64,000 nucleotides of DNA from Candidatus Sericytochromatia bacterium (GTDB lineage Bacteria > Cyanobacteriota > Sericytochromatia > UBA7694): positions 18,753 to 82,752 of the forward strand of contig JADMKE010000003.1 of the NCBI GenBank assembly GCA_018780035.1, read 5' to 3'. How positions within the stretch are numbered: the stretch's first letter is position 1; every line of letters begins with the position of its first letter. The position numbers and the translations under genes were made by a program. Shown here piece after piece: positions 228 through 64,000 of this stretch. The notes beneath the pieces were generated by a model, which was given only the letters and a program-made list of their open reading frames with translations, was not told the origin of the DNA and searched no databases.

Positions 228-497
228 TTAATCTTCGTCTTCAACTTCAATGCGAATTAACAGGATTGATTGGGCATCGGGGGCGTTTGGATCGCTGTCC
301 TCTTCGATGATTAATTCTGCACCCTCGCAGCGGGTGCCCCTGACGGCATGTTCAAAGTGTTCGCGAAAATGGGAGCCTGAAATATGTGCCAAAGCCCCAA
401 TTTTGACCGAAACACTGACCACACGGCTGGCATTTTCGCGTTGCGCGGTGTCTTCAATTTTTCTGAGCAAATTGGCCAAAAGCGAAAATTCATGCAT
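228..497 (-). CDS. hypA: Hydrogenase nickel-incorporation protein HypA-like, short form lacking the CxxC...CxxC zinc finger
   Basis: Starts at the internal MHEFSLL (HypA MHE nickel-binding N-terminus). It aligns to HypA through ...AEGAELIIEE and ends with LLIRIEVEDED, the HypA C-terminal tail. The roughly 27 residues carrying both CxxC motifs are absent. It overlaps the upstream protease gene by 8 nt. Confidence 0.65.
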   Translation of the reverse strand: MHEFSLLANLLRKIEDTAQRENASRVVSVSVKIGALAHISGSHFREHFEHAVRGTRCEGAELIIEEDSDPNAPDAQSILLIRIEVEDED

Positions 498-2414: not shown

Positions 2415-2701
2415 GAGGGCGGTCCCGCAGAATCGGATTTTTTCTCAAACATGTTTAACATGCGGTCGGTGACCACATAGCCCCCGACCACGTTGACCGT
2501 GGCAAAGATCACCGCAGCCGTGCCCAAGAGGGTCCCCCAGAGGGAATGCCCCGAACCCGCAGCCAAGATCGCCCCCACCACCGTGATCCCTGAAATGGCG
2601 TTGGAGCCCGACATCAGGGGGGTGTGCAATTGTGAAGGCACACGGGCAATGAGTTCAAAGCCCAAAAAAGCGGAGAGAATGAGGATCAACAGCAGTTCCA
2701 T
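2411..2701 (-). CDS. pntA: NAD(P) transhydrogenase alpha subunit part 2 (PntAA2, small membrane subunit)
   Basis: Start taken at MELLLILILSAF (ATG 2701..2699), which overlaps the stop of the upstream pntAA as ATGA. Hydrophobic 3-TM sequence typical of the split PntA membrane part. The ORF-track N-terminal extension overlaps the upstream gene and is rejected. Confidence 0.75.
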   Translation of the reverse strand: MELLLILILSAFLGFELIARVPSQLHTPLMSGSNAISGITVVGAILAAGSGHSLWGTLLGTAAVIFATVNVVGGYVVTDRMLNMFEKKSDSAGPPS

Positions 2702-3858: not shown

Positions 3859-5153
3859 GCGCGCGCCACCTCCAATTTGAGGAAATGGGTCGAGCAGGAG
3901 ATGCAGGGGTCGTAATTGCGAATGGCCTGTTCGCAGAGATGTTGCAATTCGGGGTCGGCTTTGTCCAAATACAAGGGCAATAAATGCCGCAAATCTGCTT
4001 CGATGGTCTTCTGGTTCTGCGAGGTCGGCGGCACAATTTTGGCATTAAGAATCAGCCCATTGGCATCAATCTCGTAGCGGTGATAACAGATGCCCCTGGG
4101 GGCTTCGGTACAGCCATGGCCTTTTCCCGCTTTAAGAGGCCCAGACACAAACGCCGTATCGGGCTTTTGGTAAAGTTCAATCAGGCGCAGGGCTTCTTCC
4201 AGTGCGTAGAGGGTTTCCAGGCTGCGCACCAAAATGCTTTTAAACGGGTTGTGGCAATGTTCAGCAATCCCCACTTCTTCGGCGAGGGCTTTGACACTGG
4301 GGCTGAGTTGCTCAAAATTGAGGTTGTACCGTGCCATGGGCCCGACAAAATAGGCCCCATGGCCAGTGTGGATGGAATGCAATGCCGTCGAGCGGGCCAC
4401 GTGTTCTTCTTCAAAATGTCTTTCGTATTCAGAGATGGGAATATCCAGGCCCAAATTGGAGACCAAGCGGCCTTCGTGAATGGCGTATTCGCTCGGGTGT
4501 TTGAGGGCCACATATTCATATTCCCGCTCAAAGGCTGGGAATTCAAATCCTGCCACCCAGCGCAGGGTTTCTATTGCCGCTTCCCGCGCCCATTCCAATT
4601 CGGGTTTCAGCGCAAGCAATTCTGTTTTTTCGGGCAGGCGGTAAAAGCCCCCCACCTGTAAATTGATCGGGTGGATTTCCCGGCCACCCAAAAGGGTCAT
4701 CAGGGTATTGCCAATTTTTTTTAAACGCAAACCGCGTTTGACGGCTTCTGGCGCGACTTTGGCCAGGGCCACCGCATCTGGAAAACCGAGAAAATCTGGG
4801 GCGTGTAACATGTAAATATGCAAAACATGGCTTTCGATCCACTCGCCGCAGTAGATCAGCCTGCGCAAACTGCGCAAAGGTTCGGGGACTTCAAGTCCGA
4901 GAATCGCTTCCATGGCCTGCACGGCCCCCATTTGGTAGGCAATCGGGCAAATGCCGCAGATCCGCGAGGTGATGTCTGGCGCTTCGCGGTAGTCGCGGCC
5001 CCGCAAAAAGGCCTCGAAGAAGCGGGGTGGCTCAAAAATTTTCAGTTGGACTTCTTCCAATGTGCTGCCGTTCATTTGGATATACAGCGCCCCTTCCCCC
5101 TCGACCCGGGCCAGGTAGTCCACAGATATGATCCGGCGTTTTTTCTCACTCAT
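3855..5153 (-). CDS. [NiFe]-hydrogenase large (alpha) subunit, group 3b sulfhydrogenase-like
   Basis: N-terminal [10 protein letters not shown] and C-terminal DPCISCSTH nickel-ligand motifs. Start chosen at [13 protein letters not shown] (ATG 5153), preceded by GAGGAG at -13. The longer ORF-track start overlaps the small-subunit gene. Confidence 0.85.
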
Positions 5154-5910
5154 GCTGCAGGCTCTCCTCTCGAAAGGCGGGGGCATTGCTATTAAAGCCC
5201 CGGTATAATCGGACCAATTCGGCTTCACTGACCCCCAAAGATTTAAACGCTTGGCTCAATGCCGCCGGATGGGGGGAATCCGAGGGGCCAAAACAGCCAT
5301 AACAGCCCCGTTGGTAGGCTGGGCAAATCGCGCCACAGCCCGCGTGGGTCACTGGGCCCAAACAGGGGATTCCCTGTGAGACCATGACACAGACCGTGCC
5401 CCTGAGTTTACATTCATGACAGACACTTTCGCTGGGCAAATGGGGCTTGCGCCGGTTTAAGAGGGCGTTGATCAGCTCCAGCAATTGGTTTTTATTGATC
5501 GGGCAGCCCCGCAATTCAAAATCGACTTTGATATGCTCGGAGATCGCCGTGGATTGGCTGAGGGTTTGAATGTATTCGGGCCGGGCGTAGACCATGCGCA
5601 TAAAATCTTCGACAGCCTGAAAATTGCGCAGGGCCTGAATCCCCCCAGCGGTGGCACAGGCCCCAATGCTGATCACCCAAGTTGATTGGGCCCGAATGGC
5701 TTCGATCCGCTCCAAATCGTGGGGGGTGGTGATGGAGCCCTCGACCAGAGAAATGTCATAGGGGCCCGCCACCACCGCCCGGCTGGCCTCTGGAAAATGG
5801 GCAATTTCAAGGGCCTCTGCCACCATCAGCAATTCGTCTTCACAGTCCAATAAACTGAGCTGGCAGCCATCACAGGAGGCAAATTTCCAAACAGCCAATT
5901 TGGGTTTCAT
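5146..5910 (-). CDS. [NiFe]-hydrogenase small (delta) subunit, group 3 type
   Basis: [22 protein letters not shown] Fe-S cluster-binding N-terminus and a C-terminal Cys cluster ([11 protein letters not shown]...[15 protein letters not shown]). Confidence 0.85.
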
Positions 5911-6750
5911 TTAGACCTCCCGGGTATTCAAAAGAGATTGGACCTTGTCATAGCGAAAGACAGGGCCGTCTTTGCAAATAAAGTGGGGGCCATATTGGCA
6001 GTGGCCACAGAACCCCACGGCACATTGCATATTGCGCTCCAAAGAGACATAGATCTGTTCGGGCTTAAGGCCTTTTTCCAAGAAGGTGTGGGCACTGTAG
6101 CGCATCATAATTTCGGGGCCGCAGATCAGGGCCAAAGTCCGATCGGCATCCAGGTCTTGGGCTTGGATCAGCGAAGTCACCACCCCTACCCGGCCCTGCC
6201 AGCTCTGTGTGGCTTGATCGAGGGTGATATGCACGGCGATCTCTGCACCTGTCTGCCAGGACAGCAATTCGTCGGCATAGAGGATTTCTGCATGTTGTCG
6301 GGCACCATAGAGCAAGGTCAGCGAACGGATTTCAGAGCGCATCGCCAGCGCGGCATAAATCACAGGCCGAACAGGGGCCAAACCCAGCCCCCCGGCCACA
6401 ATCACCAAATCTTTGCCTTTGGCTTTGTGTAAGGGCCAGGCGGAGCCAAAGGGCCCACGAATGCCCAGTGATTGCCCTGGTTTGAGTTCAGCCAAGGCGT
6501 TGGTCACAGCTCCCACTTTGCGAATGGTGTGGATTTGCGCCGAGGTGTTTTCGGGCGAGCCTGAGATTGAAATGGGCACTTCTCCCACCCCAAAGACATA
6601 GAGCATATTAAACTGCCCTGGCCGAAACGGATTGAGCGTCTGGACACGCGTTTGCACTTCAGGCTTTTCACAACTCAGGCTAAAGGTCTGAGGGGTTTCC
6701 CAGCGAAAATCGCTGATACGCCAGACCTCTGGCAAAAGCGCTGGGCTCAT
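5911..6750 (-). CDS. Hydrogenase gamma subunit, FAD/NAD(P)-binding oxidoreductase with C-terminal 2Fe-2S (AsrB/PyrK-like)
   Basis: FNR-like fold ([42 protein letters not shown]) and a C-terminal [17 protein letters not shown] cluster motif. Confidence 0.8.
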
Positions 6751-7208
6751 TTTTGATCTCCATAGAAATCCAATAATTGTAATCGCGTGGCCTGCAGTCG
6801 TTCTACCATCATTTGTCCAAAGCGGCGTTGGATCAAATACCCCATTTCATGGTCTGTTTCACATTGCTCCAAAAAGGCTTTGGCATCAAAGACCAGAATT
6901 TGGCTTTCTTCGAGGGCCTGGGCATCAAAATGCCATTTATACGGGGGATAGAGCCAAGACCAGCCCAGCAGATCCCCTTCATGCAGGGTTTGGATCCGCA
7001 CACTGCCCCGCTGTGAAGAAAACATTTCAATCGCCACCGTGCCCGATTGAATCAGGTAAAAGGCTTCCGCTTTGCCGCCCAATTTAAACACAAAATCGTG
7101 AGCGGCAAAGGTCTGAAGGTGTGCGCAGCGAATCAGGGCCTGCAGATAGGGGGTGGGTAAATCTTTAAAATGGCGTTGTTTGCGGATCGCGTCCTCTTTA
7201 ATTTCCAT
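6747..7208 (-). CDS. Stand-alone cyclic-nucleotide-binding (CAP effector) domain protein embedded in the hydrogenase operon
   Basis: 153 aa with the full cNMP-binding beta-roll pattern (FVFKLGGKAEAFYLIQSGTVAIE...GSVRIQTLHEGDLLGWSWL...ALEESQILVFDAKAF) and no HTH. AGGAGA Shine-Dalgarno 6 nt upstream of the ATG. ATGA overlap with the gamma subunit. Confidence 0.7.
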   Translation of the reverse strand: MEIKEDAIRKQRHFKDLPTPYLQALIRCAHLQTFAAHDFVFKLGGKAEAFYLIQSGTVAIEMFSSQRGSVRIQTLHEGDLLGWSWLYPPYKWHFDAQALEESQILVFDAKAFLEQCETDHEMGYLIQRRFGQMMVERLQATRLQLLDFYGDQK

Positions 7209-7219
7209 GGGGGTTCTCC

Positions 7220-8392
7220 TTATGTTTTTGTTTGTAATGCGTTCAAAGCTTCAATTTCTGAGGTGAGATCGATTCCCACCGGGCACCAGGTAATACAGCG
7301 GCCACAGCCGACACAGCCCGATTGGTCAAATTGGTCCTGCCAAAAGGCCAGTTTGTGGCTGATCCACTGTCGGTAGCGTGCGCCTGGGCTTTGGCGAATC
7401 GGCCGACCCGCAGTAAGTGTAAAATTCAATGAAAAACAGGAGTCCCACTCACGCCAGCGCTCACTGCTTGTGCCTGCCAAGTCGGTCACTTCTTGAACCC
7501 CCGAACAAAAACAGGTGGGGCAAACCAGGGTGCAATTGCTGCAACTCAGACAGCGCTCTCCCACGTCTTTCCAATGGGTGCTTTCATACCCACTTTTTAA
7601 GGCCGCGCTGGCCTGTTCGGGATTCAAACTGCGGCCCATCTGTGCTGCCGCCGCTGTCCACAACGCATTTTCTTTTTCCAGCAGTGTTGCTGGAGCATGG
7701 CTTGGGTTGCAGTGTTTGAGCAGCTCAGCCCCTTTGGCGCTGCCGGCACGGGCCAGATAACAGGGCTCTGCGGTTTCAAGCATTTCAGTGATGGCCAGAT
7801 CGTAACCGGGCCCGGCTGCTGGGCCTGCCTCCATCGAGACACAAAAGCAGGTATTGCCGGGCTCGGTGCAGTTCACAGCCAAAATAAAGATCTGTTCCCG
7901 TCTTTCCCGGTAAAAATCATCGCTGTAAGGGCCTTCGAGAAAGACCCTGTCTTGGATTTGAATCGCTTTGAGTTCACAGCCACGCACGCCAATCATGGCG
8001 TATTTGGGCACTTCCTGATCGGGGGCCGTGATCTGCAAACCACGGCTGTTTTGTTCCGCTCTCATCAACAATTGCCGGGGTGGGTAGAGGTATTTTTTCC
8101 AAGCTTGGGGGCCCACAACATAGCCAAACAAGGCTGCATCGTCTCGGGACCGCAAGCGGTAAGAGCCTTTTCCTTGAATATCGCCGATACCCATCGGCAG
8201 ATCCGCTGTACTCTGAATGCGGTCGTAGACAATGGCCTGATCCCTGACCACGGGGCCCACGGTCTGATACCCAGCGGCCTGTAATTGGCTGAGCAGCAGA
8301 TCCAAATGCAGGCGCTGAAGAAGTACGACTTCTGTTTGCATCTTCCCTGATTCCCCCGTTTCTCGGCTCCTTTGAGGAAACACGATCCTCAT
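7220..8392 (-). CDS. Hydrogenase beta subunit, 4Fe-4S ferredoxin-type (AsrA-like)
   Basis: CLSCSNCTLVCPTCFC and CVGCGRCITWCPVGI cluster motifs. The start may instead be the internal MQTEVV at 8341 (GGGGGA Shine-Dalgarno). Confidence 0.75.
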   Translation of the reverse strand: MRIVFPQRSRETGESGKMQTEVVLLQRLHLDLLLSQLQAAGYQTVGPVVRDQAIVYDRIQSTADLPMGIGDIQGKGSYRLRSRDDAALFGYVVGPQAWKKYLYPPRQLLMRAEQNSRGLQITAPDQEVPKYAMIGVRGCELKAIQIQDRVFLEGPYSDDFYRERREQIFILAVNCTEPGNTCFCVSMEAGPAAGPGYDLAITEMLETAEPCYLARAGSAKGAELLKHCNPSHAPATLLEKENALWTAAAAQMGRSLNPEQASAALKSGYESTHWKDVGERCLSCSNCTLVCPTCFCSGVQEVTDLAGTSSERWREWDSCFSLNFTLTAGRPIRQSPGARYRQWISHKLAFWQDQFDQSGCVGCGRCITWCPVGIDLTSEIEALNALQTKT

Positions 8393-26283: not shown

Positions 26284-28893
26284 GTGAAAGTATTTGCGCG
26301 TAAATTCCGGGTCAATAAGACATCGCTGTTTTCGATGGTTTTGTTGATTTCCACAGTTGGATGTCAGCCAACATCTACTTCTGGACCTAATGTCCCCACC
26401 GCTCCGACTTCGAGCCCTGTCCATTCTGCGGCTCCGGCTGCGACACCCACTCCAGGCGCCTCTGCGACACCCGTTCCGACGAGTTCGGGTCTTTCGGGGC
26501 AGAACGACACGACCCCTCCCACAGTGTCGTTTACCAGTCCTATCAATGCCGAACTGGGTATTGCCGTTAACCGCAAAATTGTCGCCACCTTTAGTGAGGT
26601 CATGGACCCAACTAGTTTGTCTGAATCCACCTTCACGGTAACAGCTCCCGGACCTGTTGCTGTTGCTGGTAAGGTGACGTATATCGGTAGCGTGGCCACC
26701 TTTACACCCACCAGCAACCTGGCTGTTAGCACCAGCTATACAGCGACGATCAGCACCAAAGCCAAGGACTTGGCTGGCAATGCCATCGCACTTAAAAAAA
26801 GCTGGGTTTTTACCACGGATGCTTCGAGTGATACCACAGCCCCAAGTGAAAGTTACTCAAACCCAGCCAATGGCGCAACCAATGTCGCTACCAGTGGCAA
26901 TCTAGGCTTGACCTTCAGTGAAGTGATGGACCCCGCAACGGTCAACACAGACACGTTTATCCTGAGAGAGCAACCCGGTTCAAAGCCCGTTGCTGGCACG
27001 GTGACATATATTGGCAATATTGTCAGCTTCAATCCCAAAGAATCGCTCAAGCCCAATACAAGTTATACGGCAACGATTACAACCGGAGCCAAAGATCTGG
27101 CAGGCAACCCCTTTGCCGCAGATAAAACCTGGACCTTTATCACAGGCTCGTCTGACGGTGCTGGCAGTGGCAGCACTGGCGGTGGCGGTGGCGGTGGCGG
27201 TGGTGGAGGTGGCGGCGGCGGCGGAGGTGGCGGTGGTACTGTCGTCACCCCAGACACCTCCCCTCCAACCCTGAGCGCAAGCAACCCTGTCAATGCAGTC
27301 CTGAATGTCTTCACCAATGGCAAGTTGGCAGTGACTTTCAGCGAGGTGATGGATGCCTCAAGTATAAATTCAACCACTTTTTCTCTGGTCGGCCCCGGTC
27401 AGACCCCTGTCCCAGGGACGGTAACTTATGCGGGCACGACGGCGACCTTTACCCCCAACGCGAATCTCGCCGCCAATACCCAGTTTACGGCCACGATCAC
27501 CAATGGGGTCAAAGACCTGGCAGGCAATGCCCTGGCAGCCAATCAGACTTGGACCTTTACCACCGGGTCCGCCACCGATACAACCGCCCCAACAGTCAAC
27601 CTGAGTACACCAGCCAACGCGGCCATAGGCGTGGCTGTCAACGCAGCTGTTTCAAGCACCTTTAGCGAAGCGATGAATGCCTTGACCATCAGCACCAACA
27701 GCTTTCAGCTGACGGGGCCTGGTGCAACGCCCGTTTCTGGCGCTGTCACCTACGTTGGCAATATTGCGACCTTTACACCCACCAGCAACCTGGCTGCCAA
27801 TACCCTGTATACAGCCACTGTGAACATGGGCGTCTTGGACCTCGCTGGCAATCCGTTGGCGGCTAACAAAGTCTGGACGTTCACCACCGGTGCTGCTCCT
27901 GATACCACGGCGCCTTTGGTGAATGCAAGCAACCCTGCGAACCTGGGCGCCAGTGTCTTGACCACAAGTCTGAACACAGCCACCTTCAATGAGCCGATGA
28001 ATCCGCTCACGCTGACCACCGCCACGTTTACCCTGACTGGGCCTGGTCAGGTACCCGTTCCGGGCACTGTCAGCTATATCGGCAATGTGGCCACCTTTAC
28101 CCCCACAACCGAGCTTGCACGCAAGACCCTCTATACGGCGACCATTACCACGGGCGCTCAGGATCTCGCAGGCAATCCGCTGGTGGCCAACAAGGTCTGG
28201 ACATTTACCACCGCTTTGGGGCCTGCTGCTGTCAACCTCAGAACCGCCGCTGATTTTGCCGTCTTATCCAAATCCGGCATTTCGTCGGTTCCGGGTTCGG
28301 TGATCACCGGGGATATTGGGGTGAGCCCAATCGGGCTGACCGCCATTACCGGTTTCTCAGAGGTGATGGATGCTTCGACCACCTTTGCGACCTCGACTCA
28401 GGTCACTGGTCGGATTTATGCGGCCAATCTGACCGCGCCCACACCCACAAAAATGACGACGGCAATTGGGGATTTGGCCACTGCATACACAGATGCGGCC
28501 GGACGGGCCATTCCTGACTTCTCTGAGTTGGGCACAGGTCAAATCGGGGGGCAGACATTGGTGCCAGGTCTCTACAAATGGGGAACCAATGTTTTGGTCT
28601 CGACCGATGTCACCTTAAACGGGGGCCCCAACGATATCTGGATCTTTCAGATTTCGGGTGGTGTGATCCAGGCTTCTGATAAACGGGTGATCCTGTCCGG
28701 TGGGGCCCAGGCCAAAAATGTCTTCTGGCAGATTGCTGGCGATGTGAGCATCGGTGCTCGCGCCCATTTTGAGGGAATCATCATGTGTGAAACCGAGATC
28801 AATCTGGGTTCAGACGCCTCGATCAACGGCCGCCTTTTGGCCAATACGGCGATTAACCTGATCAAAAACACCGTGACGCAACCGGCTCTCTAA
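26284..28893 (+). CDS. Surface lipoprotein with about 5 tandem Ig-like (SbsA/BIG-type) repeats, a Gly27 linker and a C-terminal DUF3494 ice-binding-protein-like domain
   Basis: Lipobox LLISTVGC. Repeated roughly 95 aa units (TxTYxGNxATFTPxxNLAANTxYTATIxxGAKDLAGNxLAANKxWTFTT). Run of 27 Gly. The C-terminal domain starts AADFAVLSKSGISSVPGSVITGDIGVSPIGLTAITGF and ends with a beta-helix-like G/N-rich region. Confidence 0.8.
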   Translation: MKVFARKFRVNKTSLFSMVLLISTVGCQPTSTSGPNVPTAPTSSPVHSAAPAATPTPGASATPVPTSSGLSGQNDTTPPTVSFTSPINAELGIAVNRKIVATFSEVMDPTSLSESTFTVTAPGPVAVAGKVTYIGSVATFTPTSNLAVSTSYTATISTKAKDLAGNAIALKKSWVFTTDASSDTTAPSESYSNPANGATNVATSGNLGLTFSEVMDPATVNTDTFILREQPGSKPVAGTVTYIGNIVSFNPKESLKPNTSYTATITTGAKDLAGNPFAADKTWTFITGSSDGAGSGSTGGGGGGGGGGGGGGGGGGGGTVVTPDTSPPTLSASNPVNAVLNVFTNGKLAVTFSEVMDASSINSTTFSLVGPGQTPVPGTVTYAGTTATFTPNANLAANTQFTATITNGVKDLAGNALAANQTWTFTTGSATDTTAPTVNLSTPANAAIGVAVNAAVSSTFSEAMNALTISTNSFQLTGPGATPVSGAVTYVGNIATFTPTSNLAANTLYTATVNMGVLDLAGNPLAANKVWTFTTGAAPDTTAPLVNASNPANLGASVLTTSLNTATFNEPMNPLTLTTATFTLTGPGQVPVPGTVSYIGNVATFTPTTELARKTLYTATITTGAQDLAGNPLVANKVWTFTTALGPAAVNLRTAADFAVLSKSGISSVPGSVITGDIGVSPIGLTAITGFSEVMDASTTFATSTQVTGRIYAANLTAPTPTKMTTAIGDLATAYTDAAGRAIPDFSELGTGQIGGQTLVPGLYKWGTNVLVSTDVTLNGGPNDIWIFQISGGVIQASDKRVILSGGAQAKNVFWQIAGDVSIGARAHFEGIIMCETEINLGSDASINGRLLANTAINLIKNTVTQPAL
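27160..27237 (+). repeat. (GGN)n microsatellite encoding the poly-Gly linker
   Basis: ggtgctggcagtggcagcactggc(ggtggc...)n, about 26 consecutive GGN codons. Confidence 0.9.
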
Positions 28894-40007: not shown

Positions 40008-43000
40008 ATGACAGAGAGCCCCAAACACAGTGCGCCGCGTCAGGTGTTTCCTGCGTCGGACCCCATTTTGTTTGAGGGGTCCCATTCGCTGATCTACCTC
40101 TCACACGCAGCTGAAACTGGCAAACCTGTCATTATTAAGGTCTTAAAAAAAGAACAGCCCTCGCTGCAAGAAATTGCCCAATTTAACAACGAATTTGAAT
40201 TTACCCACGATCTCGCGATTGTGGGCATTCGCAGCGCCCGCCAAAAAACCCATTACATGCACCAATCGGCTCTGGTACTGGACTATATCGAAGGCAAAAC
40301 CCTCAAGCAGCATTTGGCAGAAATGCCCATGTCTTTACAAACGGGGCTTCATTTGGCCATCCAATTGGCGCAACTCTTGGGCGAAATTCATCAATTGGGG
40401 ATCATCCACAAAGACCTCAATCCGGCCAATATTCTGATTGAAGCGGGTACACAACAGCCCTGGTTGATTGATTTTGGCCTGTCTTGCAAATGGGACATGA
40501 AAGTCCCCCATCTCAACCCACCCCATACCCTGGAAGGCACGCTGGCTTACCTCTCTCCCGAACAAAGTGGCCGCATGAACCGGTGGGTGGATTACCGCAG
40601 CGATCTCTATTCTTTGGGAATCAGTCTGTATGAGCTTTTCACGGGGCAATTGCCTTTTGTCGCTGAAGACAGTTTGGGCTGGGTACACGCCCATATTGCC
40701 AGGCCTCCCAAGCCCCCCCATGAAGTCAATCCCAAGATGCCTGTCAGCCTTTCTGAGCTCATTTTAAAACTGATCTCTAAAAATGCCGAAGACCGTTACA
40801 AATCGGCCTTTGGCTTAAAAAAAGACCTCGAAAAATTGGCCCAGGGGCAGACCCAATTTGAATTGGCCCAAGACGATCATTCTGCCCGGTTGCAAATTCC
40901 GCAAAAGCTCTATGGCCGTGAACAAGAAATGGCCATTCTTTCAGGGGCTTTTGAGCGCATTTGCCAAGGAAAATGTGAATTGATGTTGATCGCAGGTTAT
41001 TCGGGGGTGGGCAAAACAGCCTTGGTTTACCAATTGCACAAACCCATTACCGAAAAACAAGGCTATTTTATTTCGGGCAAATTTGATCAGTTTCAACGCA
41101 ATATTCCCTATTCTGTGTTTACCCAGGCCTTTAACCAACTCTGTGAATATCTGCTGACCGAAAGTGAAGACAAGCTGGCCGATTGGCGACAGCGCATTCT
41201 CACTGCGGTGGGTCAAAATGGTCAGGTCCTGTTGGACATCATCCCCAAGTTGGTTTGGATCATCGGTGAACAGCCCGAAATTCCCAGTTTGGCACCGCTT
41301 GAAGCCCAAAACCGCTTTAACCTCTATTTTGGCTATTTTATTGATGCGCTTTGCAGCCCAGATCACCCCTTGGTGATCTTTATTGATGACTTACAATGGG
41401 CCGATTTGGCCTCGTTGGAATTGTTAAAATTGCTCTTTTCGGAATCCCATTCCCATCTGCTTTTGGTGGGGGCCTACCGCAATAACGAGGTCTCACCCCG
41501 TCATCCCATGATGTTGACCCTGGCTGAAATTCAAAAATTGGGAAACCCCATCAATCAGGTTCAGCTCGAAAACCTCAGCAAAGCCGATCTGGCCGTTTTA
41601 TTGCAAGAAACGCTTCACCATTCCCCAGAACTGCCTGCCTTATTGGATCTGATCTATGAAAAAACCCTGGGCAATGCCTTTTTTGTCAGCCAGTTTCTGA
41701 CGTCGCTCAACGAATCAGATTGGCTGACCTTTCATTTTCAGACCAGGAAATGGCAATGGGATATTGAGGTGATTAAAAGAAAAGAGATCACAGACAATGT
41801 GATTACTTTTATGTCGAATAAAATTCAAAAACTGCCCCAAAACACCCAAGAAATCTTAAAACTGGCTGCATGTATTGGCAATCAATTTGACTTGGCCCTG
41901 CTGAGTCGTCTGGCAGAAGGGCCTGTCCAAGAAACCGCCAGAGCTGTCCAAGCCTGTTTGGTTGAAGGGCTGATCAGTCCTTTGCAGGATATTTACCAAC
42001 TCCGGGTAAAGGTGATGGAGGACCCTCGCAGCCAGAATACCGCGCCTCAGATGGCCGAGTATTATAAATTTATCCATGACCGGGTTCAACAGGCGGCTTA
42101 TGCCCTGCTGTCTGAGTCCGAGCGCGAAATTCTGCATTTGCGCGTGGGTAAACTGCTTTTGGCAGAGGTGCAAACGCAGACCAGAGACCCCGAAAGCCAT
42201 CTCTTTGACCTGGTTGAACATCTCCATTTGGCTTTAAATTTGGTGCAAACGCCTGCCGAGCGCCTGCAAATTGCCCAACTCAGTTTGCAGGCGGGCAAAC
42301 GGGCCAAATTATCCGCAGCGTATGAATCGGCGTTTAAATACCTTAAAACCGGTCTGAGCTGTTTGCCCGAGCAGGCTTGGGCCAGTGATTATGATTTGAC
42401 CTTTGAGATCTATTTAAATGCCATTGAAACAGCGCTGCTGAGCGGCAATTTTGAGCAAATGACTGCGTGGTCTGATCTCGTTTTGGCCTCCACCGATCGG
42501 CTGCTCGACCGCACCCGCGTTTACGAATTGCAAATCACCTTTCACCATGCCCAATACCGCTTGGAAGAATCGGTCAAAACGGGTTTATTTGTCTTGGGAA
42601 CATTGGGCATTGCCATTCCCGAAGATCCCTGTCCTGCAGATTTGCAAAAGGCCTTGGCGGAAACCCATTCTAAGTTGGCGGGCCGCAGCCCCGCAGATTT
42701 ACAAGCGCTTCCCCTGATGGAAGATGCCGCGATGAAAGCCGCGATCCGGATTATGTACAATATCAACCTCTCGGCTTTTTTCTTTCGCCCTTTGCTCTAT
42801 CCTCTATTGGTTGCCAAAGAAGTGGGCCTGATTGCCCAATTTGGCAATGTGCCAGAATCGGCTTTTGTCTATGCCACCTTTGCGATGATTCTCTCAGGGG
42901 TGTTGGGGGAGATTGATTTGGGCTATCAATTTGGCCAAGTCAGCAAAAATCTGCTGGCCTTGCCCCGCTCAAAACAGGTTGAAACGCGCACCCTTTTGGT

Positions 43001-45986
43001 TTTGGGCAATGGGGTTTTGCACTGGAAAGAATCGATCCACGCTTATTTGGACATTTATCCCGAGGCCTATAAAAAGGGGCTGGAGACCGGCGACCATGAA
43101 TGGGCCGCTCAATCGGCGCAGGCCATTTGTTTTATGGCTTTTTACGCTGGGGTTGAATTGCGTTCGATCTCCCAGAATATGGCCCATTATATGGAGGTGA
43201 TCGCCAAGCTCAAATCAGCCATCACCCTGCAATACCAATCGATTTATTATCAATCGGCTTTAAATCTGTTCACCCCGACAGAGAACCCAGGTTTGCTCAA
43301 AGGCCAGATTTACGACGAAACAGAGATGCTGCCCGTACATGAAGCAGCGAAAGACTATACCGGCATCTGTGTGATGTATTTTAGCAAATTGGTCCTGGCT
43401 TACCTTTTTGAGGACTATCAAGCGGCTTATGCCAATACCCTCAAAGCCGCAGAGACCTTGGATTCGATTGTCTGTGTGGTGCATATTGTCCTTTATCACC
43501 ACTATGATTCTCTCTGTCGCTTGGCCCTCTATCCCAACTGGTCCGAGCAGGAACAGGCTTTACAATGGGCCAAAATAGAAGCCAATCAAGCCAAAATGAA
43601 GCTGTGGTCCGAACATGCCCCCGGCAATCACCGCCAGAAATACCAATTGGTCGAAGCTGAAATGGCCCGCATCTTGGGGCAAACAGAGCGGGCCATGGCC
43701 GCTTACGAACAGGCCATTGCAAGCGCACAAGCGAATAAATACCTCAATGATGAGGCCCAGAGCAATGAGTTGTACGGCAAGTTTTGGCTCAACCGGGGTC
43801 AGCCCAAAATTGCAGGATTATACCTGCAAGAAGCGCTCAGGCTTTACCGCTACTGGGGAGCCACAGAAAAGGCCAAACAGCTCGAAAAAAAATATCCAGC
43901 CTTGCTTCATGGCTATCCTCAGATTCCCTCGGCAGCCCTCACCACCCAGACCACCTCTCAAAACGAATCTCAATTTGAATTGGATTATTTTACGATCTTA
44001 AAATCGACCCGCGCCATTTCACAAGAGATCGATCTCAAGCTGCTCTTAAAACAGCTTTTGGAAATACTGTTAGAAAATACCGGGGCCGAAAAAGGGGGAC
44101 TTTTATTGCCTTTGGGGCAAGCTTGGTTTCTCGAAGCTTACCGCGAGTTTCAAGGCAAGTCAGAGATTCTCCAACACACGCCTTTGGAACAAGCGACCGG
44201 CATCCCCCATGTGATCATTCAATATGTCTTGCGCTCGGGGGAAAATCTGGTGATCGAAGATGCCCAAAATGATGAGCGCTTTCGCCTGGATGAACAAATC
44301 AACGCCAGCGGCATCAAATCCATCCTCTGTCTGCCTGTCTCGCACCAGGGCAAAACGGCCCTGGTGCTGTATCTCGAAAACCGACTCTTGGCAGGGGCCT
44401 TTACCCCCAGTCGCCTGGAATTGTTAAACATCCTGCTCAATCAAGCGGTGATCTCTTTGGAAAATGCCCGTCTCTACCATTCGCTCGAAGAAGAGGTCAA
44501 AGTGCGCACCCGCGAATTGCAAGAGGCCAAAGAAGCGGCGGAATGGGCCAAAGAAGCAGCAGAACAAGCCAATCAGGCCAAGAGTCTCTTCTTTGCCAAT
44601 TTAAACCATGAGATCCGCACGCCTTTAAACGCCATTATTGGCTTTTCCAGATTGGTGAGCAGAGAGCCAGAATTGACCCCCGAGCAGAGCAATAAACTGC
44701 ATATTGTTGTCCGCAGTGGCGAACATTTGCTGGACCTGATCAACGACACTTTGGAAATGTCCAGGATCGAAACGGGCAAATTGCAATTGCAAAATTCGGT
44801 GTTTGAACTCAGTGGGTTTCTGGCTGAAATTGAGTATATTTTACGCTTGAAGGCTGCCGTTAAAGGGCTGGAGCTGAATTTTCAGATAGACAAAGAGGTG
44901 CCCCGCTCGATCGAGGCAGATCAAGGCAAATTGCGACAGGTCTTGATCAATTTTATCAGCAACGCCCTTAAATACACCTTAGAGGGACGGGTCGACTTGC
45001 GGGTCAGTTGCAAAGCCCAAGGGGCTGACAGCAGTTTGGAGGGAGCAGTACTCGATTTTAAGATTGAAGATACCGGCATCGGCATTTCAGAGCGGGATTT
45101 GGCCACTATTTTTCAACCTTTTGTCCAATTGGAAACAGGCTCTCTTTCTCAAGGGGGCGTAGGCCTGGGGCTGGCTATCAGTCAGCGTTTTATTGAATTG
45201 ATGGGGGGGGCCTTGACGGTGGAAAGCCAACAGGGGAAAGGTTCGCGTTTCCAATTTTCTCTGCCTGTTGGGAATGTCCGTACACCAGTGGCCGTGACGG
45301 CACAGCCGGCTGCTCTTGTGATAGGTCTGGCCCCCGGACAGGCCCGTTACAAAATCTGTATTGTTGACAATGATCCTTCTAATCTCAGCCTGATTGCCCA
45401 TTATTTAAAACCACTCGATCTGGAGTTGCATTTGGCGGAAAACGGCCAAGCAGCGCTCGACATTTGGCGACGTTGGCAACCCGATTTGATCTTTATGGAT
45501 ATCCAAATGCCAGGTTTAAATGGCTATCAAGTCACTGAGCAGATCCGGGCCGCTGAGACCGAAAAAAGGACGGTGATTATCGCCGTTACGGCCTCTGCCT
45601 TTGCTGAAGAACGGGCGATTGCCCTGCAAAAAGGCTGCGATGACTTTGTGCTCAAACCCCTGCTGGAAGAAGAAATTTTTGCAACTTTGCAAACACACCT
45701 GAAACTCGAATACCTGTATCAAGCGCTCCCGAGGGGGGAACAGCCGCCCGTATTTCAGATTCAGACACCCGATAAATTGCAGGCAGAGATTATGCAATTG
45801 CCTTTAGAATTGCATTCTCAATTGGCGCTTGCCACAGAATTTGGCTCGATTGAAAAAATCGAGTGGGTGATTCAGAAAATAAAGGCCCGCAGTCCCGTCT
45901 TGGGCAATCATCTCGAAGCTCTTTCCGAGCAATTTGACTATGACGGTATCTTATCTCTGCTTGAGGCCGCTGAAAAAAAACGTTAG
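40008..45986 (+). CDS. Multi-sensor signal-transduction multi-kinase: Ser/Thr kinase, STAND/AAA ATPase, TPR, GAF, histidine kinase, receiver
   Basis: 1992 aa. Ser/Thr kinase ([25 protein letters not shown]). P-loop [13 protein letters not shown]. Long helical repeat region. GAF. HisKA H-box ([16 protein letters not shown]). HATPase ([19 protein letters not shown]). Receiver (KICIVDND...[15 protein letters not shown]). Confidence 0.85.
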
Positions 45987-51378: not shown

Positions 51379-51528
51379 CCCATCAAGGCATAGGCGGTGC
51401 ACCAGCAGGGCCCCTCTCAAACGGCAAAAGCAAACCTGCTAATTGGTTATAATGGTAAACAGCCCCAATCACTTAGCTCTTTTACGATCAGAGCCAGTTT
51501 ACTATTCAGAGTCAGGAGTTCGCATTCC

Positions 51529-53172
51529 ATGTCTATTGAACCCATATCCGAAGCCGAAACTGAGGATACGCTCGAGCGCTTTCTTGCGACAGAAACCACA
51601 ACCGAAAGTTTAGAGACCCCCACAGAGAGCTACCTTTCTCCTTTTGCAGGCTTGAGCCTGTATGCCGAAGAGGATGAATACCAAGAGGAAGATGAAGATC
51701 TTCCGCCATTTATGCGGGCCCAAGCCCAAAAAGCCGAAACAAAACCAGAGCCTGTTGCCCATTCGGTGCCAGAAACAACCCAGGCCAAGGCGGCTCCAAC
51801 TGCACCAGCCGTTCCGGTTGCGCCCCCCATTCCCCAACGGGCCGCGGCTGAATTGGCCCCTGAAGAGCTGCAAGAGACCTTGATTGTGGGGGGATTCAGT
51901 TTAAATTCAGGCGATAGTCAATACAAACAAGAAGAGAGCATGCTCAATTACCTGATCAAAAATGCCTTGGTTGATCAGGTTTCTGCGATCCACATTGAAC
52001 CGATGGACCGGTATATTCGTGTGCGCTACAGAATTGGCGGTGTTTTACAACAAAAAACGGCCTTGCCCCCCAATTTGGGAATGCCCATGCTTGCACGTTT
52101 AAAACAACTCTGCGCCTTAAATGCAGAAATGGTTACCACACCTCAGCAGAACCGGGTTCATGCCAGTTTTAACGAGCAAGAATTTGAATTGGGTTTGGCC
52201 ACCTATCCCACCGCCTGGGGTGAGAATATGGTCATGAGTTTGCGTCAGAAACAGAAATCCGCCAATGATGTACTCCGACTCGACAGTATTGGGCTCTCAC
52301 CCCTGAATCTTTGGCGCTTGCAAAAATTATTGGGGCAGCCCGGCGGTCTCACCATTGTGACCGGCCCCGCCCGTTCAGGCAAAACAACCACCCTTTACGC
52401 GGCCTTAAATGCCTTAAATTTGCTCAGCCGTTCGATTGTGACAGCCGAAAATCCGCTCGAACACCTGATCATGGGCATTACCCAGGGCAATTGGAGCCCC
52501 GAAAATGGCGAATCTTACCCAGATTTGATCCGCGCCATGTCTCATTTGGATCCCGATGTTTTGATGGTCAGCCAATTGGATTCACCCGAAACTGTTGAAG
52601 CCACTGTGGATCAAGCACTTACTGGTGCCAAGGTGCTCACTTCGTATCACAGCTTTGATACCATGGGGGCCTTGCTGCGTTTGGGGGTGCAGGGGCTGGA
52701 ATCGTATTTGATCGCCTCCAGCAATGTGACCCTGATTTCTCAGCGATTGGTTCGCAAGCTCTGCCCCCATTGCCGCCATGCAGATTCGCCTCCCAAAGAA
52801 TTCCTCGATGTCTTGGGACTCAAAGGCGTTCATCCCAAATCTTTTCAGGTGTATTGGGCCCGTGGCTGCAGTGAATGCAATCAAATGGGCTATTTGGGCC
52901 AGACCACATTGCAAGAGATGTTGGTCTTAAACGAATCCATGCGTGAGGCCATTTTGGAACATCAACCCGCCGCCCGGATTCGCGAGTTGGCGAGACAAGA
53001 AGGCAAATTGGTGACCATGGCTGAAGATGGCTATTTTAAAGCCACCGAAGGGATCACCTCGCTCTCAGAAGTGCAGCGGGTGGCTTTTGTGAACGAATTT
53101 GATGCCAAATCACCCTGGGAAGCTGAAAAAATCCTCAAGGTGTGTAAAGGCGAAGATCAGAGCTATTTGTAA
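51529..53172 (+). CDS. GspE/PilB-family secretion ATPase paralogue with a degenerate catalytic core (predicted non-hydrolysing)
   Basis: Start at MSIEPISEAE. Acidic low-complexity N-terminus. Walker A GPARSGKTTT. The Asp box is ENPLEH (not EDPIE). The Walker B region is DVLMVSQLD (not D..MVGE.RD). His box TSYHSFD. Tetracysteine CPHC...CSEC. Confidence 0.75.
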   Translation: MSIEPISEAETEDTLERFLATETTTESLETPTESYLSPFAGLSLYAEEDEYQEEDEDLPPFMRAQAQKAETKPEPVAHSVPETTQAKAAPTAPAVPVAPPIPQRAAAELAPEELQETLIVGGFSLNSGDSQYKQEESMLNYLIKNALVDQVSAIHIEPMDRYIRVRYRIGGVLQQKTALPPNLGMPMLARLKQLCALNAEMVTTPQQNRVHASFNEQEFELGLATYPTAWGENMVMSLRQKQKSANDVLRLDSIGLSPLNLWRLQKLLGQPGGLTIVTGPARSGKTTTLYAALNALNLLSRSIVTAENPLEHLIMGITQGNWSPENGESYPDLIRAMSHLDPDVLMVSQLDSPETVEATVDQALTGAKVLTSYHSFDTMGALLRLGVQGLESYLIASSNVTLISQRLVRKLCPHCRHADSPPKEFLDVLGLKGVHPKSFQVYWARGCSECNQMGYLGQTTLQEMLVLNESMREAILEHQPAARIRELARQEGKLVTMAEDGYFKATEGITSLSEVQRVAFVNEFDAKSPWEAEKILKVCKGEDQSYL

Positions 53173-53191: not shown

Positions 53192-53218
53192 AAAAAACGG
53201 CGGGTGAAAGCCCGCCGC
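53192..53218 (-). terminator. Rho-independent terminator for the glycine-zipper gene (hairpin plus T6 on the minus strand)
   Basis: Plus strand aaaaaa-cggcgggtgaaagcccgccg. The minus strand reads hairpin followed by TTTTTT. It may also terminate the convergent ATPase gene. Confidence 0.7.
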
Positions 53219-53249
53219 TTGAGAGAGATACAAATACGAGAATCGAAGT

Positions 53250-53966
53250 TTACTTGTCGGTATTGAGCAAACCAATACCTGCGCCAATCGCAGCACCGAT
53301 AACAAAGGCAACTGGAGAGGCATGAGTCAGGCGATCGGCGGCCATTGAGGCGATCGCAGAGCCCGCAATACCGACAGCAGAGCCGCCGATTAATGCGCCA
53401 GCAACGGTATTTTTAATCGCGTTGGTATTTTTGTCGCCGGTGTCGAGGTTAACCAATCCAATGCCGGTGCCCAGAGCGATACCGATGCCCACACCCAGAC
53501 CACTGGGGCCAGAAAGCTGATCAAATCCTATGGAACGGACGGCGCTGTTGGCAATTGCCATGGCTGAACCGCCAATTAAGGCGCCTGCAGCGGTATTTTT
53601 AATTTGATTGGTGGTTTCGTCGCCGGTTTCGAGATTGAGCAGGCCAATGCCAGCGCCCATCGAAACACCGATGCCAACACCTGTCAGGGTGGGAGCGGTC
53701 AGACGGTCGGCAGCAATGGAGTTGACGATGCCATTGGCCAGAGTGCCTGCACCCCCGCCGATTAAAACGCCACCTGCAATTTTTTTTGCGATGTCTAAGG
53801 GATCAGAGGTTTGTTTTTTAAATTCTACAGCGTCACCCTGGTCAAGGGGGCTGGGCGCAGGCGGCGCGGGAGGCAGGGGTTGCTGCTGGGGTTCTGCGGC
53901 GCGGGCGGTAATCCGGGTTTCAACCGTCACTTGAACATTGGAGCCAGAAACTTGAAAACTTCCCAT
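53250..53966 (-). CDS. Hypothetical protein with three tandem repeats of about 60 aa carrying glycine-zipper motifs (GxxxGxxxG)
   Basis: Repeat unit D..TN.IKNT.AGALIGG.A..IANS.V.SI..D.L..P..LGVGIG...G.GIGL.NL(E/D)TGD occurs three times. Pro-rich N-terminus. No signal peptide. Confidence 0.6.
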   Translation of the reverse strand: MGSFQVSGSNVQVTVETRITARAAEPQQQPLPPAPPAPSPLDQGDAVEFKKQTSDPLDIAKKIAGGVLIGGGAGTLANGIVNSIAADRLTAPTLTGVGIGVSMGAGIGLLNLETGDETTNQIKNTAAGALIGGSAMAIANSAVRSIGFDQLSGPSGLGVGIGIALGTGIGLVNLDTGDKNTNAIKNTVAGALIGGSAVGIAGSAIASMAADRLTHASPVAFVIGAAIGAGIGLLNTDK

Positions 53967-60414: not shown

Positions 60415-62402
60415 ATGAGTCAAACGCAGCCATCCAGACAAGGACAGGCCGGTTTCCGCATTGGTGAACTGCTGGTACGCGAAGGCTATCTCACCATGGA
60501 TGCCCTGAACAAAGTCCTGGCGATTCAAAAGCAGCAAAAAGAGGCCCTGAGCGGTGAATACAAGCCCTTCGGACAGATTTGTCTGGAGCTGAAACTGATC
60601 ACCCGTGAAGAGTTACAGCGCTTTCTGAAAAAATACAATAAACGCATTTACCTGGGTGAATTGCTCGTGAATATGGGACTGATCACGATCAAACACGTGG
60701 ACCTGATTCTCAACCAACAAAAACAAAGTGGCAAACGCTTTGGTGAGCTTTTGGTGGAACAGAAAATCATCACCGAATCCCAATTGACCGACGCCCTTTC
60801 GACCCAATTGGATGTGCCCAAAATTATCCCTTCGCTGCAATTGATGGATCGCTCTCTGATGGACGGTATGTCTGAGCAATTTGTGCGCTCCAATCAGTTT
60901 TTGCCAGTCTACAAAGAGGGTGACCAACTCACGGTTGTGATGGCCGACCCTGCCAATCAGGATCTGGTCAAAGAACTGGAACACCAATTGCAATTGCGGA
61001 TTGCCCCCGCCATTGCCCCTGCCTCTGAAATTTCCCGCACGATCAACGAGTATTATCACAGTTCGACCTCGATCGACAAAAAAATGGATCCGAATTTGGA
61101 GCAGGTCAAACTCGAAGGCATTCAGCCCGAAGCAGAAGACAAAGTCAGTTCTCAAGACAATTCAGCGGCCATTGCCAATTTCTTGATCTCCAATGCCATG
61201 AAAGACCGGGCCTCGGATATTCACGTCGAACCCCAAGAAAAATATATCCGCATCCGCTACCGCATCGACGGCGTTTTGCACCACAAAACCGACCTGCCCA
61301 GCAATTTGGGCCCGGCCCTGGTCACCCGCCTGAAAAAGGTCTGCCGCCTCAATCCCGACGATGTCAAAGCCTATCAAGATGGGCGTGTGGTCGGAGATAT
61401 TGCTGGCAGCAAGATCGAAATCCGGGTCTCGACCTATCCCAGCATCTGGGGCGAAAACGTCGTGATTCAACTGCAGGACAAAGAGAGCACCTTCCAAGAT
61501 CTGCTCTTAAATATGGACCGCACAGGCTTTTCGCCGCTGTATATCCAGCGCTACCAAAAGATCCTCAACCAACCCGGTGGAATTGTGATTGTGACCGGCC
61601 CTGCCAATACCGGCAAAACCACCACACTCTACGCTTCAATCAATTATCTCAATCAGCAAAACCGCTCGATTATCACGGCCGAAGACCCAATTGAACGTCC
61701 CGTGCCAGGCACCGTTCAAGGGGCTTATAACCCCGAATCGGGCATCAGCTACGCAGAGATGATTCTGGCCATGTTGAAACAGGATCCAGATATTCTCGTG
61801 GTGGGTGAAGTCAAAGACAAAGCCACCATGGGTGCGGTGGTTGAAGCGGCACTTTCGGGCTCCAAGGTGCTCACCACCTACCCGGCCTTTGACGCCACCG
61901 GCGCGCTTTTGCGCCTGATGAATCTGGGCCTGGAAGACTATTTGATCGCCTCCAGCAATATCACAGTCATGAACCAGCGTTTGGTACGCCGCCTCTGTGA
62001 TTCTTGTAAAGCCACTTACACCCCCAAGAAAGAAACCTTTAATCTCTTGGGACTGGTCGATGTCGATCCCTCTTCTTATGAGTTTTACCGGCCAGTGGGT
62101 TGCCCCGAGTGCAGCCAACACGGCTTTAAAGGCCAGACCGCGATTCATGAATTGCTGCAGATCAACGAAGCGATTCGTGAGGCCCTGATCGAGCGCAAGC
62201 CCGCCGCCACCATTCGCGGGATTGCCCGAACCGAAGCCAAATTGGTGAGCATGGCCGAAGACGGGCTCTATAAAGCAATCGAAGGCATGACCTCGGTCGA
62301 AGAAGTCCAGCGCGTGGCCTTTGTCAATGAATACGACTCTCAAACCCCTTGGGAAGCTGAAGAGATCTACCAGATCTGTTCTGGCCTGGAACCCGAATAC
62401 CT

Positions 62403-62406
<4 letters not shown>
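60415..62406 (+). CDS. GspE/PilB-family ATPase with N-terminal tandem MshEN-type (c-di-GMP-binding) motifs
   Basis: N-terminal RIGELLVREGYLTMDALNKVLAIQ, YLGELLVNMGLITIKHVDLILNQQ and RFGELLVEQKIITESQLTDALSTQ match the MshEN consensus RLGxxLVxxGLIxxxxLxxxLxxQ. Walker A GPANTGKTTT, EDPIER, Walker B DILVVGEVKD. The His-box position reads TTYPAFD, so the His is absent. Tetracysteine CDSC...CPEC. Confidence 0.8.

Positions 62407-64000
<1,594 letters not shown>

Follow-up and report, generated by a model that had tools for sequence, protein, structure and literature searches.

Does an ATPase with the fold of a pilus or secretion motor still act as a motor once its catalytic glutamate and arginine fingers have gone? 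The question is raised by a gene at positions 51529..53172 (+) of a 64,000-nucleotide stretch of DNA (the window; assembly GCA_018780035.1, contig JADMKE010000003.1, positions 18,753 to 82,752) from Candidatus Sericytochromatia bacterium. Sericytochromatia are an uncultured, non-photosynthetic sister lineage of cyanobacteria. The gene, delimited from the list of open reading frames (ORFs), Pfam and identity to the NCBI protein P0001, encodes a degenerate PilB/GspE-like protein of 547 aa plus stop, called here the degenerate ATPase. Hydrolysis of ATP by this protein is probably abolished or strongly reduced. The reading favoured, with somewhat less assurance, is that of an ATP-binding, hydrolysis-impaired pseudo-ATPase with a regulatory or scaffold role, which would make it a functional lineage-specific paralogue of PilB/GspE. 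A hydrolysis-dead, ATP-binding pseudo-ATPase had already been proposed in a preliminary description of the locus. The proposal is supported, on a firmer basis than before, namely the E395Q change, the loss of both arginine fingers, R397, H413 and R504, and a ratio of nonsynonymous to synonymous substitution rates (dN/dS, omega) of 0.012-0.027 over the core.

Residue equivalences were established with phmmer alignments to T. thermophilus PilF and to GspE, and PilB of G. metallireducens (PilB_Gm) was aligned via a paralogue encoded elsewhere in the window; the alignments are gap-free around every motif. PilB residue numbers refer to PilB_Gm, and the protein's own numbers to the 547-aa product. 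In a check on the rebuilt PilB_Gm sequence, T327, K331, E357, E395, H413, H420, R257, R271, R286 and R455 match the published residues. With the published numbers mapping exactly and no gaps at the motifs of PilF, GspE or Geobacter PilB, misalignment is ruled out, and the two substitutions first reported, EDP to ENP in the Asp box and GE to SQ in Walker B, are real. What the preliminary description understated was their extent, the site being more degenerate than it had claimed.

All motifs were placed by alignment, and all features of the gene lie on the + strand. Walker A reads GPARSGKT (canonical GPTGSGKT; aa 279-286, 52363..52386): the pattern GxxxxGK[ST] is satisfied, with AR instead of TG at positions 3-4. 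K331 and T332 of PilB are kept as K285 and T286, T327 is changed to A281 and the P-loop residue G328 to R282. The Asp box TAENPLEH (canonical T(I/A)EDPVE(Y/F); aa 305-312, 52441..52464) keeps E353 as E307 and the Mg ligand E357 as E311, and has N308 for D354. Walker B and pore loop 1 are atypical (DPDVLMVSQLDSPET, canonical DPDIIM(V/I)GEIRDxET; aa 341-355, 52549..52593), VGEIRD having become VSQLDS. There, G394 is changed to S348 and D398 to S352, the catalytic Glu E395 is lost to Q349, R397 beside Walker B is lost to D351, and the pore-loop acid E400 is kept as E354. In the degenerate His box (LTGAKVLTSYHSFD, aa 364-377, 52618..52659), the first His, H413, is lost to A367 and the second, H420, is kept as H374. 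Elsewhere, R257 and R455 are kept as R209 and R409, and both arginine fingers are lost (R271 to G222; R286 to S237, with an Arg, R239, two residues on). GYLGQ replaces the canonical GYxGR (aa 454-458, 52888..52902), so that R504, an Arg present in all canonical sequences aligned, becomes Q458. Walker A, the Asp box, Walker B, the His box and a tetracysteine zinc site had all been listed as fold landmarks. This holds for all but the His box, which is recognisable, with its first His replaced by Ala and its second found only in P0001-P0005.

In ASCE ATPases, hydrolysis is classically blocked by exchanging the catalytic Glu for Gln. McCallum et al. 2017 (PMC5424180) report that PilT-like ATPases are without exception conserved in the Walker motifs and the catalytic Glu, in two arginine fingers and in one Glu of the Asp box; Mg is coordinated by E357, the gamma-phosphate is touched by R286 and H420, and E395 is poised for hydrolysis. 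Adams et al. 2019 (PMC6762196) describe the Walker-B Glu of PilT as the catalytic residue, required for hydrolysis, and show that V. cholerae PilT is disabled by R206S, a naturally occurring change of the residue that corresponds to R397. The Asp-box Asp to Asn change, initially put forward as the key hydrolysis-killing substitution, does not carry that weight. The Mg ligand is the last Glu of EDPxE (E357), and since it is kept as E311, the Asp to Asn change is the least informative of the substitutions.

The degenerate ATPase is not the isolated oddity for which it was first taken, as it belongs to a Sericytochromatia-specific clade whose members all have a remodelled site. A database search recovered 52 clusters at 90% identity with its peculiarities (P0001-P0052); the named clusters come only from metagenome-assembled genomes (MAGs) of Sericytochromatia or Blackallbacteria, or labelled 'Melainabacteria'. 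All hits more distant than these are canonical (GPTGSGKT / EDP / VGE / TGH..H). When one genome per GTDB species was scanned with two clade-specific peptides, the clade was found only in seven Sericytochromatia/Blackallbacteria representatives, and a profile search of 1.84 billion 50%-identity representatives returned five clade representatives and, beyond them, canonical sequences. Neither Pfam nor NCBIfam has a model specific to the clade. In a neighbour-joining (NJ) tree it falls into three groups: Q-type, which includes the degenerate ATPase, intermediate, and PAR-type, which includes the paralogue at 60415-62406.

Across the clade, K331, T/S332, E353 and R455 are kept in all 52 clusters and E357 in 51, with E311 invariant in the Q-type subclade (alignment A1). 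H413 occurs in none of the clusters, G328 has been lost from every one, R504 is likewise absent throughout (Gln in 51, Met in one) and R286 is found in two. H420 is confined to P0001-P0005, with P, T, S, Q or L at this position elsewhere. R271 survives in the PAR-type group alone, in most of its members, and these have G328N; the Q-type and intermediate groups have G328R and no R271. The catalytic Glu E395 has been replaced in 12 of the 52 clusters, on at least five separate branches of the NJ tree: by Q or H in the subclade of the degenerate ATPase, by D in P0007/8, by A in P0021/23 together with G in P0032, by A in P0022 and by Q in P0044. Repeated losses of the catalytic Glu, on these five or more branches, under tight constraint form the best comparative argument, and indicate that hydrolysis would be dispensable within the Sericytochromatia clade.

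Six key positions were compared in the 144 nearest representatives from outside the clade, and only about nine ATPase domains differ at one or more of them. Apparent natural loss of catalytic residues is thus sporadic and recurrent in the T2SSE family and rare outside the clade. Degenerate Walker A, Asp-box, catalytic Glu or His-box positions were observed in the non-clade T2SSE proteins P0128, P0140, P0141, P0177, P0179 and P0233. A separate peculiarity was seen in Patescibacteria proteins of ~1000 aa (P0053-P0111, P0124-P0152), which carry two tandem T2SSE modules per chain, the second Walker B often being NPN and not DPD. The nearest canonical relatives, few of them named, are from Desulfobacteria and Syntrophaceae MAGs, with no cyanobacteria among them, and are uninformative. 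No description of a naturally degenerate PilB/GspE paralogue or of this clade was found in the literature searched, which also gave nothing relevant on pili in Sericytochromatia or Melainabacteria and nothing specific to Sericytochromatia.

Selection on the gene was assessed against two MAGs of Sericytochromatia/Blackallbacteria that are collinear with the window, L004 (JBIKWL01), with 97% aa identity, and L005 (JBPXJQ01), with 95%. Over the ATPase core, omega is 0.012 and 0.027 at a dS of ~0.35. The values for the disordered N-terminus are 0.28 and 0.20, and those for neighbouring metabolic genes 0.03-0.08. In the comparison with the L001 orthologue (80% identity), where dS is saturated, the core has an omega of 0.05. 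The degenerate ATPase is among the most constrained genes of its neighbourhood. Its non-canonical residues persist across orthologues at dS 0.35 to ~2 despite synonymous codon turnover at N308, S348 and R282 (CGT/CGC for R282), which speaks against chance, and these residues are themselves maintained; the codon of Q349 is CAA in all four orthologues. In one small subclade, E395Q (GAA to CAA) coincides with P420H (CCC to CAC). A gamma-phosphate contact may have been regained when the catalytic base was lost, favouring a stable ATP-bound state; since the pairing is a single evolutionary event, this is offered as a suggestion.

In the proposed mechanism, the nucleotide site would have been converted from catalysis to binding. 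Mg-ATP would be bound and turned over very slowly or not at all, and because it would hardly be hydrolysed, the protein would act through conformation or occupancy instead of work, as a switch, a scaffold, a competitor for a platform protein or a non-catalytic ring subunit. Most likely, the machine on which it acts would resemble a type IV pilus or be of the secretion type, with its genes in another part of the genome, and the protein could act jointly or compete with the cyclic di-GMP (c-di-GMP)-sensing paralogue 7 kb away. In Ras, a bulky residue at the fourth P-loop position (G12/G13) obstructs the incoming arginine finger. By analogy, R282 in the P-loop would block an arginine finger, matching the rise of G328R together with the loss of R271.

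Several points weigh against this account. The loss of hydrolysis is predicted from homology only, and D351, R239 or R282 could partly stand in for the lost residues. The clade overall may still turn over ATP slowly, since most members keep a minimal set (Lys, Mg-Glu, catalytic Glu). The putative link to a pilus or secretion machine comes down to family membership and the retained pore-loop acid, because no conserved neighbour, platform protein, pilin or secretin emerged at the 13 loci described below.

The residues that could stand in are at the centre of another explanation, in which the motor is still active and its site rewired, R282 and R239 replacing the arginine fingers and D351 or H374 activating the water. 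This is unlikely. It would account for the very strong purifying selection on the entire core, nucleotide site included, for the kept pore-loop Glu, and for a set of co-variations: G328R lies on the same branch as the R271 loss, nearly all members of the degenerate ATPase's subclade have an Arg two residues past R286, and P420H coincides with E395Q. However, each co-variation represents a single branch and so has little statistical weight. D351 is found clade-wide, also where E395 is kept, and hence is no specific compensation. Clade members may have E, Q, H, D, A or G at the catalytic position, a freedom unexpected for an essential residue, and the change found here is the textbook block of hydrolysis.

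By fold and zinc site, the degenerate ATPase is a member of the T2SSE superfamily, PilB/GspE branch, and it lacks the catalytic features that define PilB and GspE and scores below their equivalog thresholds. Pfam T2SSE (PF00437) covers residues 136-517 (E = 1.7e-76; 257.8 bits vs a cut-off of 24.9; profile positions 9-370 of 370). The best NCBIfam match is TIGR02533 (GspE), with 310.8 bits, under the cut-off of 630.25; TIGR02538 (PilB) gives 287.6 bits, under 675.65. The model of the PilT/PilU retraction ATPases, TIGR01420, falls short, with 62.9 bits vs a cut-off of 319.1. A TadA/CpaF Flp-pilus ATPase, the NCBI name of the identical protein, was considered and rejected, as TIGR03819, a model of the TadA family, gave no match and the top NCBIfam models are GspE and PilB; the name 'TadA' appears generic. 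The tetracysteine zinc-binding insert (C412, C415, C447 and C450; 52762..52878), with its four Cys invariant in alignment A2, is a trait of PilB/GspE and the BfpD/TcpT clade (PMC5424180). The protein is not an MshE-type receptor, a TadA/CpaF or a PilT/PilU. The PADLOC models of anti-phage defence did not match the degenerate ATPase, the paralogue or either neighbour.

Structural comparison agrees with this placement. The best phmmer match in the PDB is T. thermophilus PilF (6e-68), and an AlphaFold2 (AF2) model built with 60 sequences has a predicted local distance difference test score (pLDDT) > 90 across most of residues 121-547. In Foldseek, the model superposes on the core of PilF formed by the N2 and C-terminal domains (N2D+CTD) with a template-modelling (TM) score of 0.90 and a root-mean-square deviation (rmsd) of 2.8 A, the range over T. 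thermophilus PilF and the Geobacter PilB core being TM 0.83-0.90 and rmsd 2.8-4 A. Both secretion-type N-terminal domains, N1 and N2, had been thought missing. The absence of N1/MshEN is borne out and that of N2 is not: the Pfam profile match from position 9 to 370, the alignments, the AF2 model and the Foldseek TM of 0.90 to PilF N2D+CTD place an N2 domain at ~aa 136-250 (51934..52278).

Ahead of N2 lies the acidic disordered N-terminal region noted from the start (aa 1-135, 51529..51933), defined by charge and motif scan and predicted to be disordered from pLDDT. Its net charge is -19 over residues 1-115, and pLDDT is mostly < 55 to ~residue 110. A conserved SPFAGLSLY (aa 37-45, 51637..51663; alignment A1) is followed by an acidic run; the motif is common to longer MshEN-bearing relatives, where it sits within the linker. 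A conserved LEETLIVGG...YKQEE(S/G)MLNY then leads into the N2 domain. At the other end, a clade-specific C-terminal extension of ~30 aa, QRVAFxNExD..PW.AEKI...C.GE (aa 516-547, 53074..53169), is conserved clade-wide in the alignments and modelled by AF2 as helices with pLDDT > 90. Canonical PilB/GspE proteins end near alignment residue 520.

The disordered region stands where most relatives have an MshEN c-di-GMP module. Most clade members are 650-880 aa long, with an MshEN domain holding one strict and two looser copies of the 24-residue c-di-GMP motif RLGxx(L/V/I)(L/V/I)xxG(L/V/I)(L/V/I)xxxxLxxxLxxQ (Wang et al. 2016, as quoted in PMC10333796). In this they and the paralogue resemble MshE-type ATPases, as far as the motif quoted there defines them; in contrast, PF05157 and the motif are absent from the degenerate ATPase, and the motif also from its nearest relatives, the acidic region taking its stead. 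A split MshEN domain encoded upstream was considered and rejected, as within the window MshEN motifs were found in the paralogue alone. It is conceivable rather than likely that the whole clade was exapted from a pilus or secretion motor into a sensor of c-di-GMP, through MshEN, and of ATP, through a non- or slow-hydrolysing site. The subclade of the degenerate ATPase would then have given up the catalytic Glu as well as the c-di-GMP sensor and now be purely a scaffold in the ATP-bound state, possibly forming with the paralogue a mixed ring in which it is the subunit without catalysis.

The paralogue, a PAR-type protein of 663 aa encoded at 60415..62406 (+), was characterized by Pfam, NCBIfam, alignments and motif scan. 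The preliminary description had suggested it as a partner of the degenerate ATPase; it belongs to the same clade and is itself non-canonical. The two share 52% identity across the core. NF053729 matches the paralogue at 6e-24, and c-di-GMP motifs of the MshEN type occur in it three times (aa 15, 80 and 109). EDP, GE (E395) and R271 are kept; both His-box His, R286 (Q) and R504 (Q) are not. With 99.1-99.5% aa identity to its counterparts in L004/L005 and an omega of 0.010-0.016, it is the most constrained gene nearby. Q-type and PAR-type genes lie 7 kb apart in the window and in L004/L005, and a Q-type (P0032) and a PAR-type protein (P0033) both come from the HGW-Melainabacteria-1 MAG. The two types co-occur in at least two lineages, and their linkage is lost beyond close relatives, the Q-type gene having no PAR-type gene closer than 10 kb in L001, L002, L007, L009 or L027.

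It is quite improbable, on these data, that the degenerate ATPase serves as a non-catalytic subunit of a mixed ring whose catalytic Glu and c-di-GMP sensor come from the paralogue, like alternating catalytic and non-catalytic subunits in other ring ATPases. Membership of one clade at 52% core identity, constraint that makes both genes locally the most constrained (omega 0.010-0.027), co-occurrence in the window, in L004/L005 and in the HGW-Melainabacteria-1 MAG, and the presence in the paralogue of the E395 and R271 that its neighbour has lost would all fit such a ring. However, the linkage fails at the more distant loci just listed, the paralogue itself lacks R286 and both His-box His and so is not a normal active partner, and no natural hetero-hexamer of this kind was found in the literature searched. 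Downstream, a 368-aa secreted-looking protein with a faint DUF4424 match (62403-63509 (+)) starts 4 nt before the end of the paralogue stop, the two genes overlapping. In L031 a counterpart of this protein is followed by 3-dehydroquinate synthase, also overlapping, as a possible operon; the arrangement is not conserved around the PAR-type genes in L026 and L030.

The immediate neighbours of the degenerate ATPase are as first described. Upstream is a CAP-domain lipoprotein (PF00188; LLLLAC lipobox), and convergent downstream is a protein of 238 aa (53250..53966 (-)) that matches no Pfam family and contains three internal glycine-zipper repeats. The glycine-zipper gene is strongly constrained (omega 0.018-0.025), and the next gene encodes proline dehydrogenase. 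These two also adjoin the orthologue in L001 and L006 (69-80% identity), and not further out. When all ORFs within 7 kb were compared at 13 loci, they were the only lasting neighbours, on the opposite strand and only in close relatives (69-97% identity). Function could not be read from the gene neighbourhood, as no functional partner emerged across the 13 loci.

Machinery genes were sought in the window with Pfam on 48 ORFs (greedy call, >= 70 aa) and a prepilin-motif regular expression. No T2SSF/PilC, PilM/N/O, secretin or prepilin motif was found within the 64 kb, in keeping with the earlier remark that platform, pilin and secretin genes are not adjacent. Logan contigs sharing the end genes, which reach ~5 kb beyond the 3' end of the window and ~3 kb beyond its 5' end, likewise had none of this machinery, and no platform protein, pilin, secretin or PilM/N/O was found within 7-10 kb at the 13 loci, which span three subclades. 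In T. thermophilus, pilF, a genuine pilus ATPase gene, is also unlinked. The orphan position is thus compatible with a pilus role, and the context gives no functional lead. In Blackallbacteria (L002/L003, 6772-9048 (-)), a 758-aa protein with a ParA/MinD-like N-terminus fused to a T2SSE domain (TadA-like) was observed beside the Q-type orthologue P0009, divergent from it and behind a TPR protein.

A departure from pilus and secretion biology altogether, with the PilB fold re-used as an ATP-sensing signalling or scaffolding module in an unrelated process, is about as improbable as the mixed ring. It would suit a gene that is always an orphan among varied neighbours, the absence of machinery genes from the window and from the flanks recovered beyond its ends, and the SPFAGLSLY motif and 30-aa C-terminal extension, which canonical PilB/GspE proteins lack. 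However, an orphan position is normal for real pilus ATPases such as PilF, and the pore-loop acid, the zinc site and the N2D/CTD architecture have all been kept. Finally, the missing catalytic residues and lost N-terminal sensor domain might suggest that the gene copy is decaying or that alignment or assembly produced an artefact. This is highly improbable, because the ORF is intact, the same substitutions occur in independent MAGs of different studies, core omega is 0.012-0.027, all motifs align gap-free and the structure model is confident, so that dN/dS and recurrence in independent assemblies rule out a relic or pseudogene.

Taking the degenerate ATPase as a hydrolysis-impaired pseudo-ATPase, its likeness to known systems is partial. 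With PilB (G. metallireducens 5TSG/5TSH; T. thermophilus PilF 5OIU/5IT5) it shares the N2 domain, the RecA-like C-domain and the tetracysteine insert at ~32-33% identity, as well as the Walker A Lys/Thr, E353/E357, E400, R257 and R455. Unlike PilB, it lacks E395, R271, R286, R397, H413 and R504, has GPAR for GPTG and no N1/MshEN domain, bears extra C-terminal helices, and has no pilC, pilM or pilin gene nearby. GspE/EpsE (V. cholerae 1P9R, 4KSR) is its best NCBIfam match and shares the core fold and zinc site; in contrast, the degenerate ATPase scores below the cut-off, has no N1 domain for GspL binding, has degenerate catalytic residues and lies outside any gsp operon.

Pseudo-enzymes inside motor ATPase families are familiar from other ring ATPases. 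ArlH/FlaH of the archaellum is a nucleotide-binding, hydrolysis-poor partner that modulates the PilT-like motor ArlI/FlaI. ArlH is KaiC/RecA-like and outside the PilB/GspE family, with no sequence relationship to the degenerate ATPase; the likeness is to the proposed role only. Closest in working mode is an engineered Walker-B Glu mutant of PilB or PilT. Adams et al. 2019 (PMC6762196) report that inactivated V. cholerae PilT (K136A/E204A) gives intermediate, PilU-dependent phenotypes. Together with the natural R206S, this inactive PilT shares with the degenerate ATPase a disabled Walker B Glu or adjacent Arg, and inactive PilT with PilU is the nearest functional precedent for a non-catalytic family member working beside a second ATPase. 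However, the PilT changes each affect one residue of a retraction ATPase and are either engineered or of recent origin, whereas the degenerate ATPase is ancient, altered at many residues, under selection and of the PilB/GspE branch.

The start of the gene deserves comment, since the same ORF can be read from GTG 51397 or ATG 51529, both ending at 53172 (+). The true start is likely ATG 51529, because the 547-aa product is 100% identical to P0001, an NCBI protein of a Candidatus Sericytochromatia MAG, because an AGGAG ribosome-binding site read from the sequence lies 10 nt 5' of this ATG (51514..51518 (+)), and because a TATAAT hexamer (51448..51453 (+)) falls within the longer GTG reading frame. 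The hexamer lies in the 150-bp gap after the CAP gene and is a possible -10 element of the gene's own promoter; the consensus promoter scan missed it for want of a -35 match. Between the convergent stops of the ATPase and glycine-zipper genes, a consensus scan placed a GC-rich hairpin with a 10-bp stem (53195..53220, no strand assigned), which is likely a bidirectional terminator. As this hairpin parts the gene from its convergent neighbour, the degenerate ATPase gene looks monocistronic.

Other features of the window were observed in passing. A 1992-aa protein (40008-45986 (+)) combines Ser/Thr kinase, AAA_16 (STAND-like), GAF, HisKA/HATPase and receiver domains; it is missing from the otherwise collinear L004 and L005 and therefore represents a lineage-specific insertion or loss. 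An 869-aa protein (26284-28893 (+)) has five Big_5 Ig-like domains and a C-terminal ice-binding-like domain (PF11999, 2.9e-71). A cluster at 490-8392 (-) encodes a [NiFe]-hydrogenase large subunit, the HycI maturation protease, NAD(P) transhydrogenase alpha and beta, an Fe-S/NAD-binding oxidoreductase and a cNMP-binding protein, and fits a non-photosynthetic, hydrogen-metabolising Sericytochromatia lifestyle.

PilB/GspE-type ATPases are usually treated as obligate motors, and McCallum et al. 2017 (PMC5424180) regard the catalytic Glu, the arginine fingers and the His box as invariant among them. The clade described here is a strongly selected branch that has repeatedly discarded catalytic residues and kept the ATP/Mg set; if this is true, the fold would be re-usable as a nucleotide switch or scaffold. 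Automatic labels such as 'TadA' or 'PilB' imply an active motor, so annotations of such proteins should be read with caution. With E, Q, H, D, A and G all occurring at the catalytic position, the clade also amounts to a natural 'mutant series', which could serve to separate ATP binding from hydrolysis in ring conformations and in platform engagement. If the reading as a pseudo-ATPase is true, it would add an extra regulatory layer to the pilus or secretion biology of Sericytochromatia.

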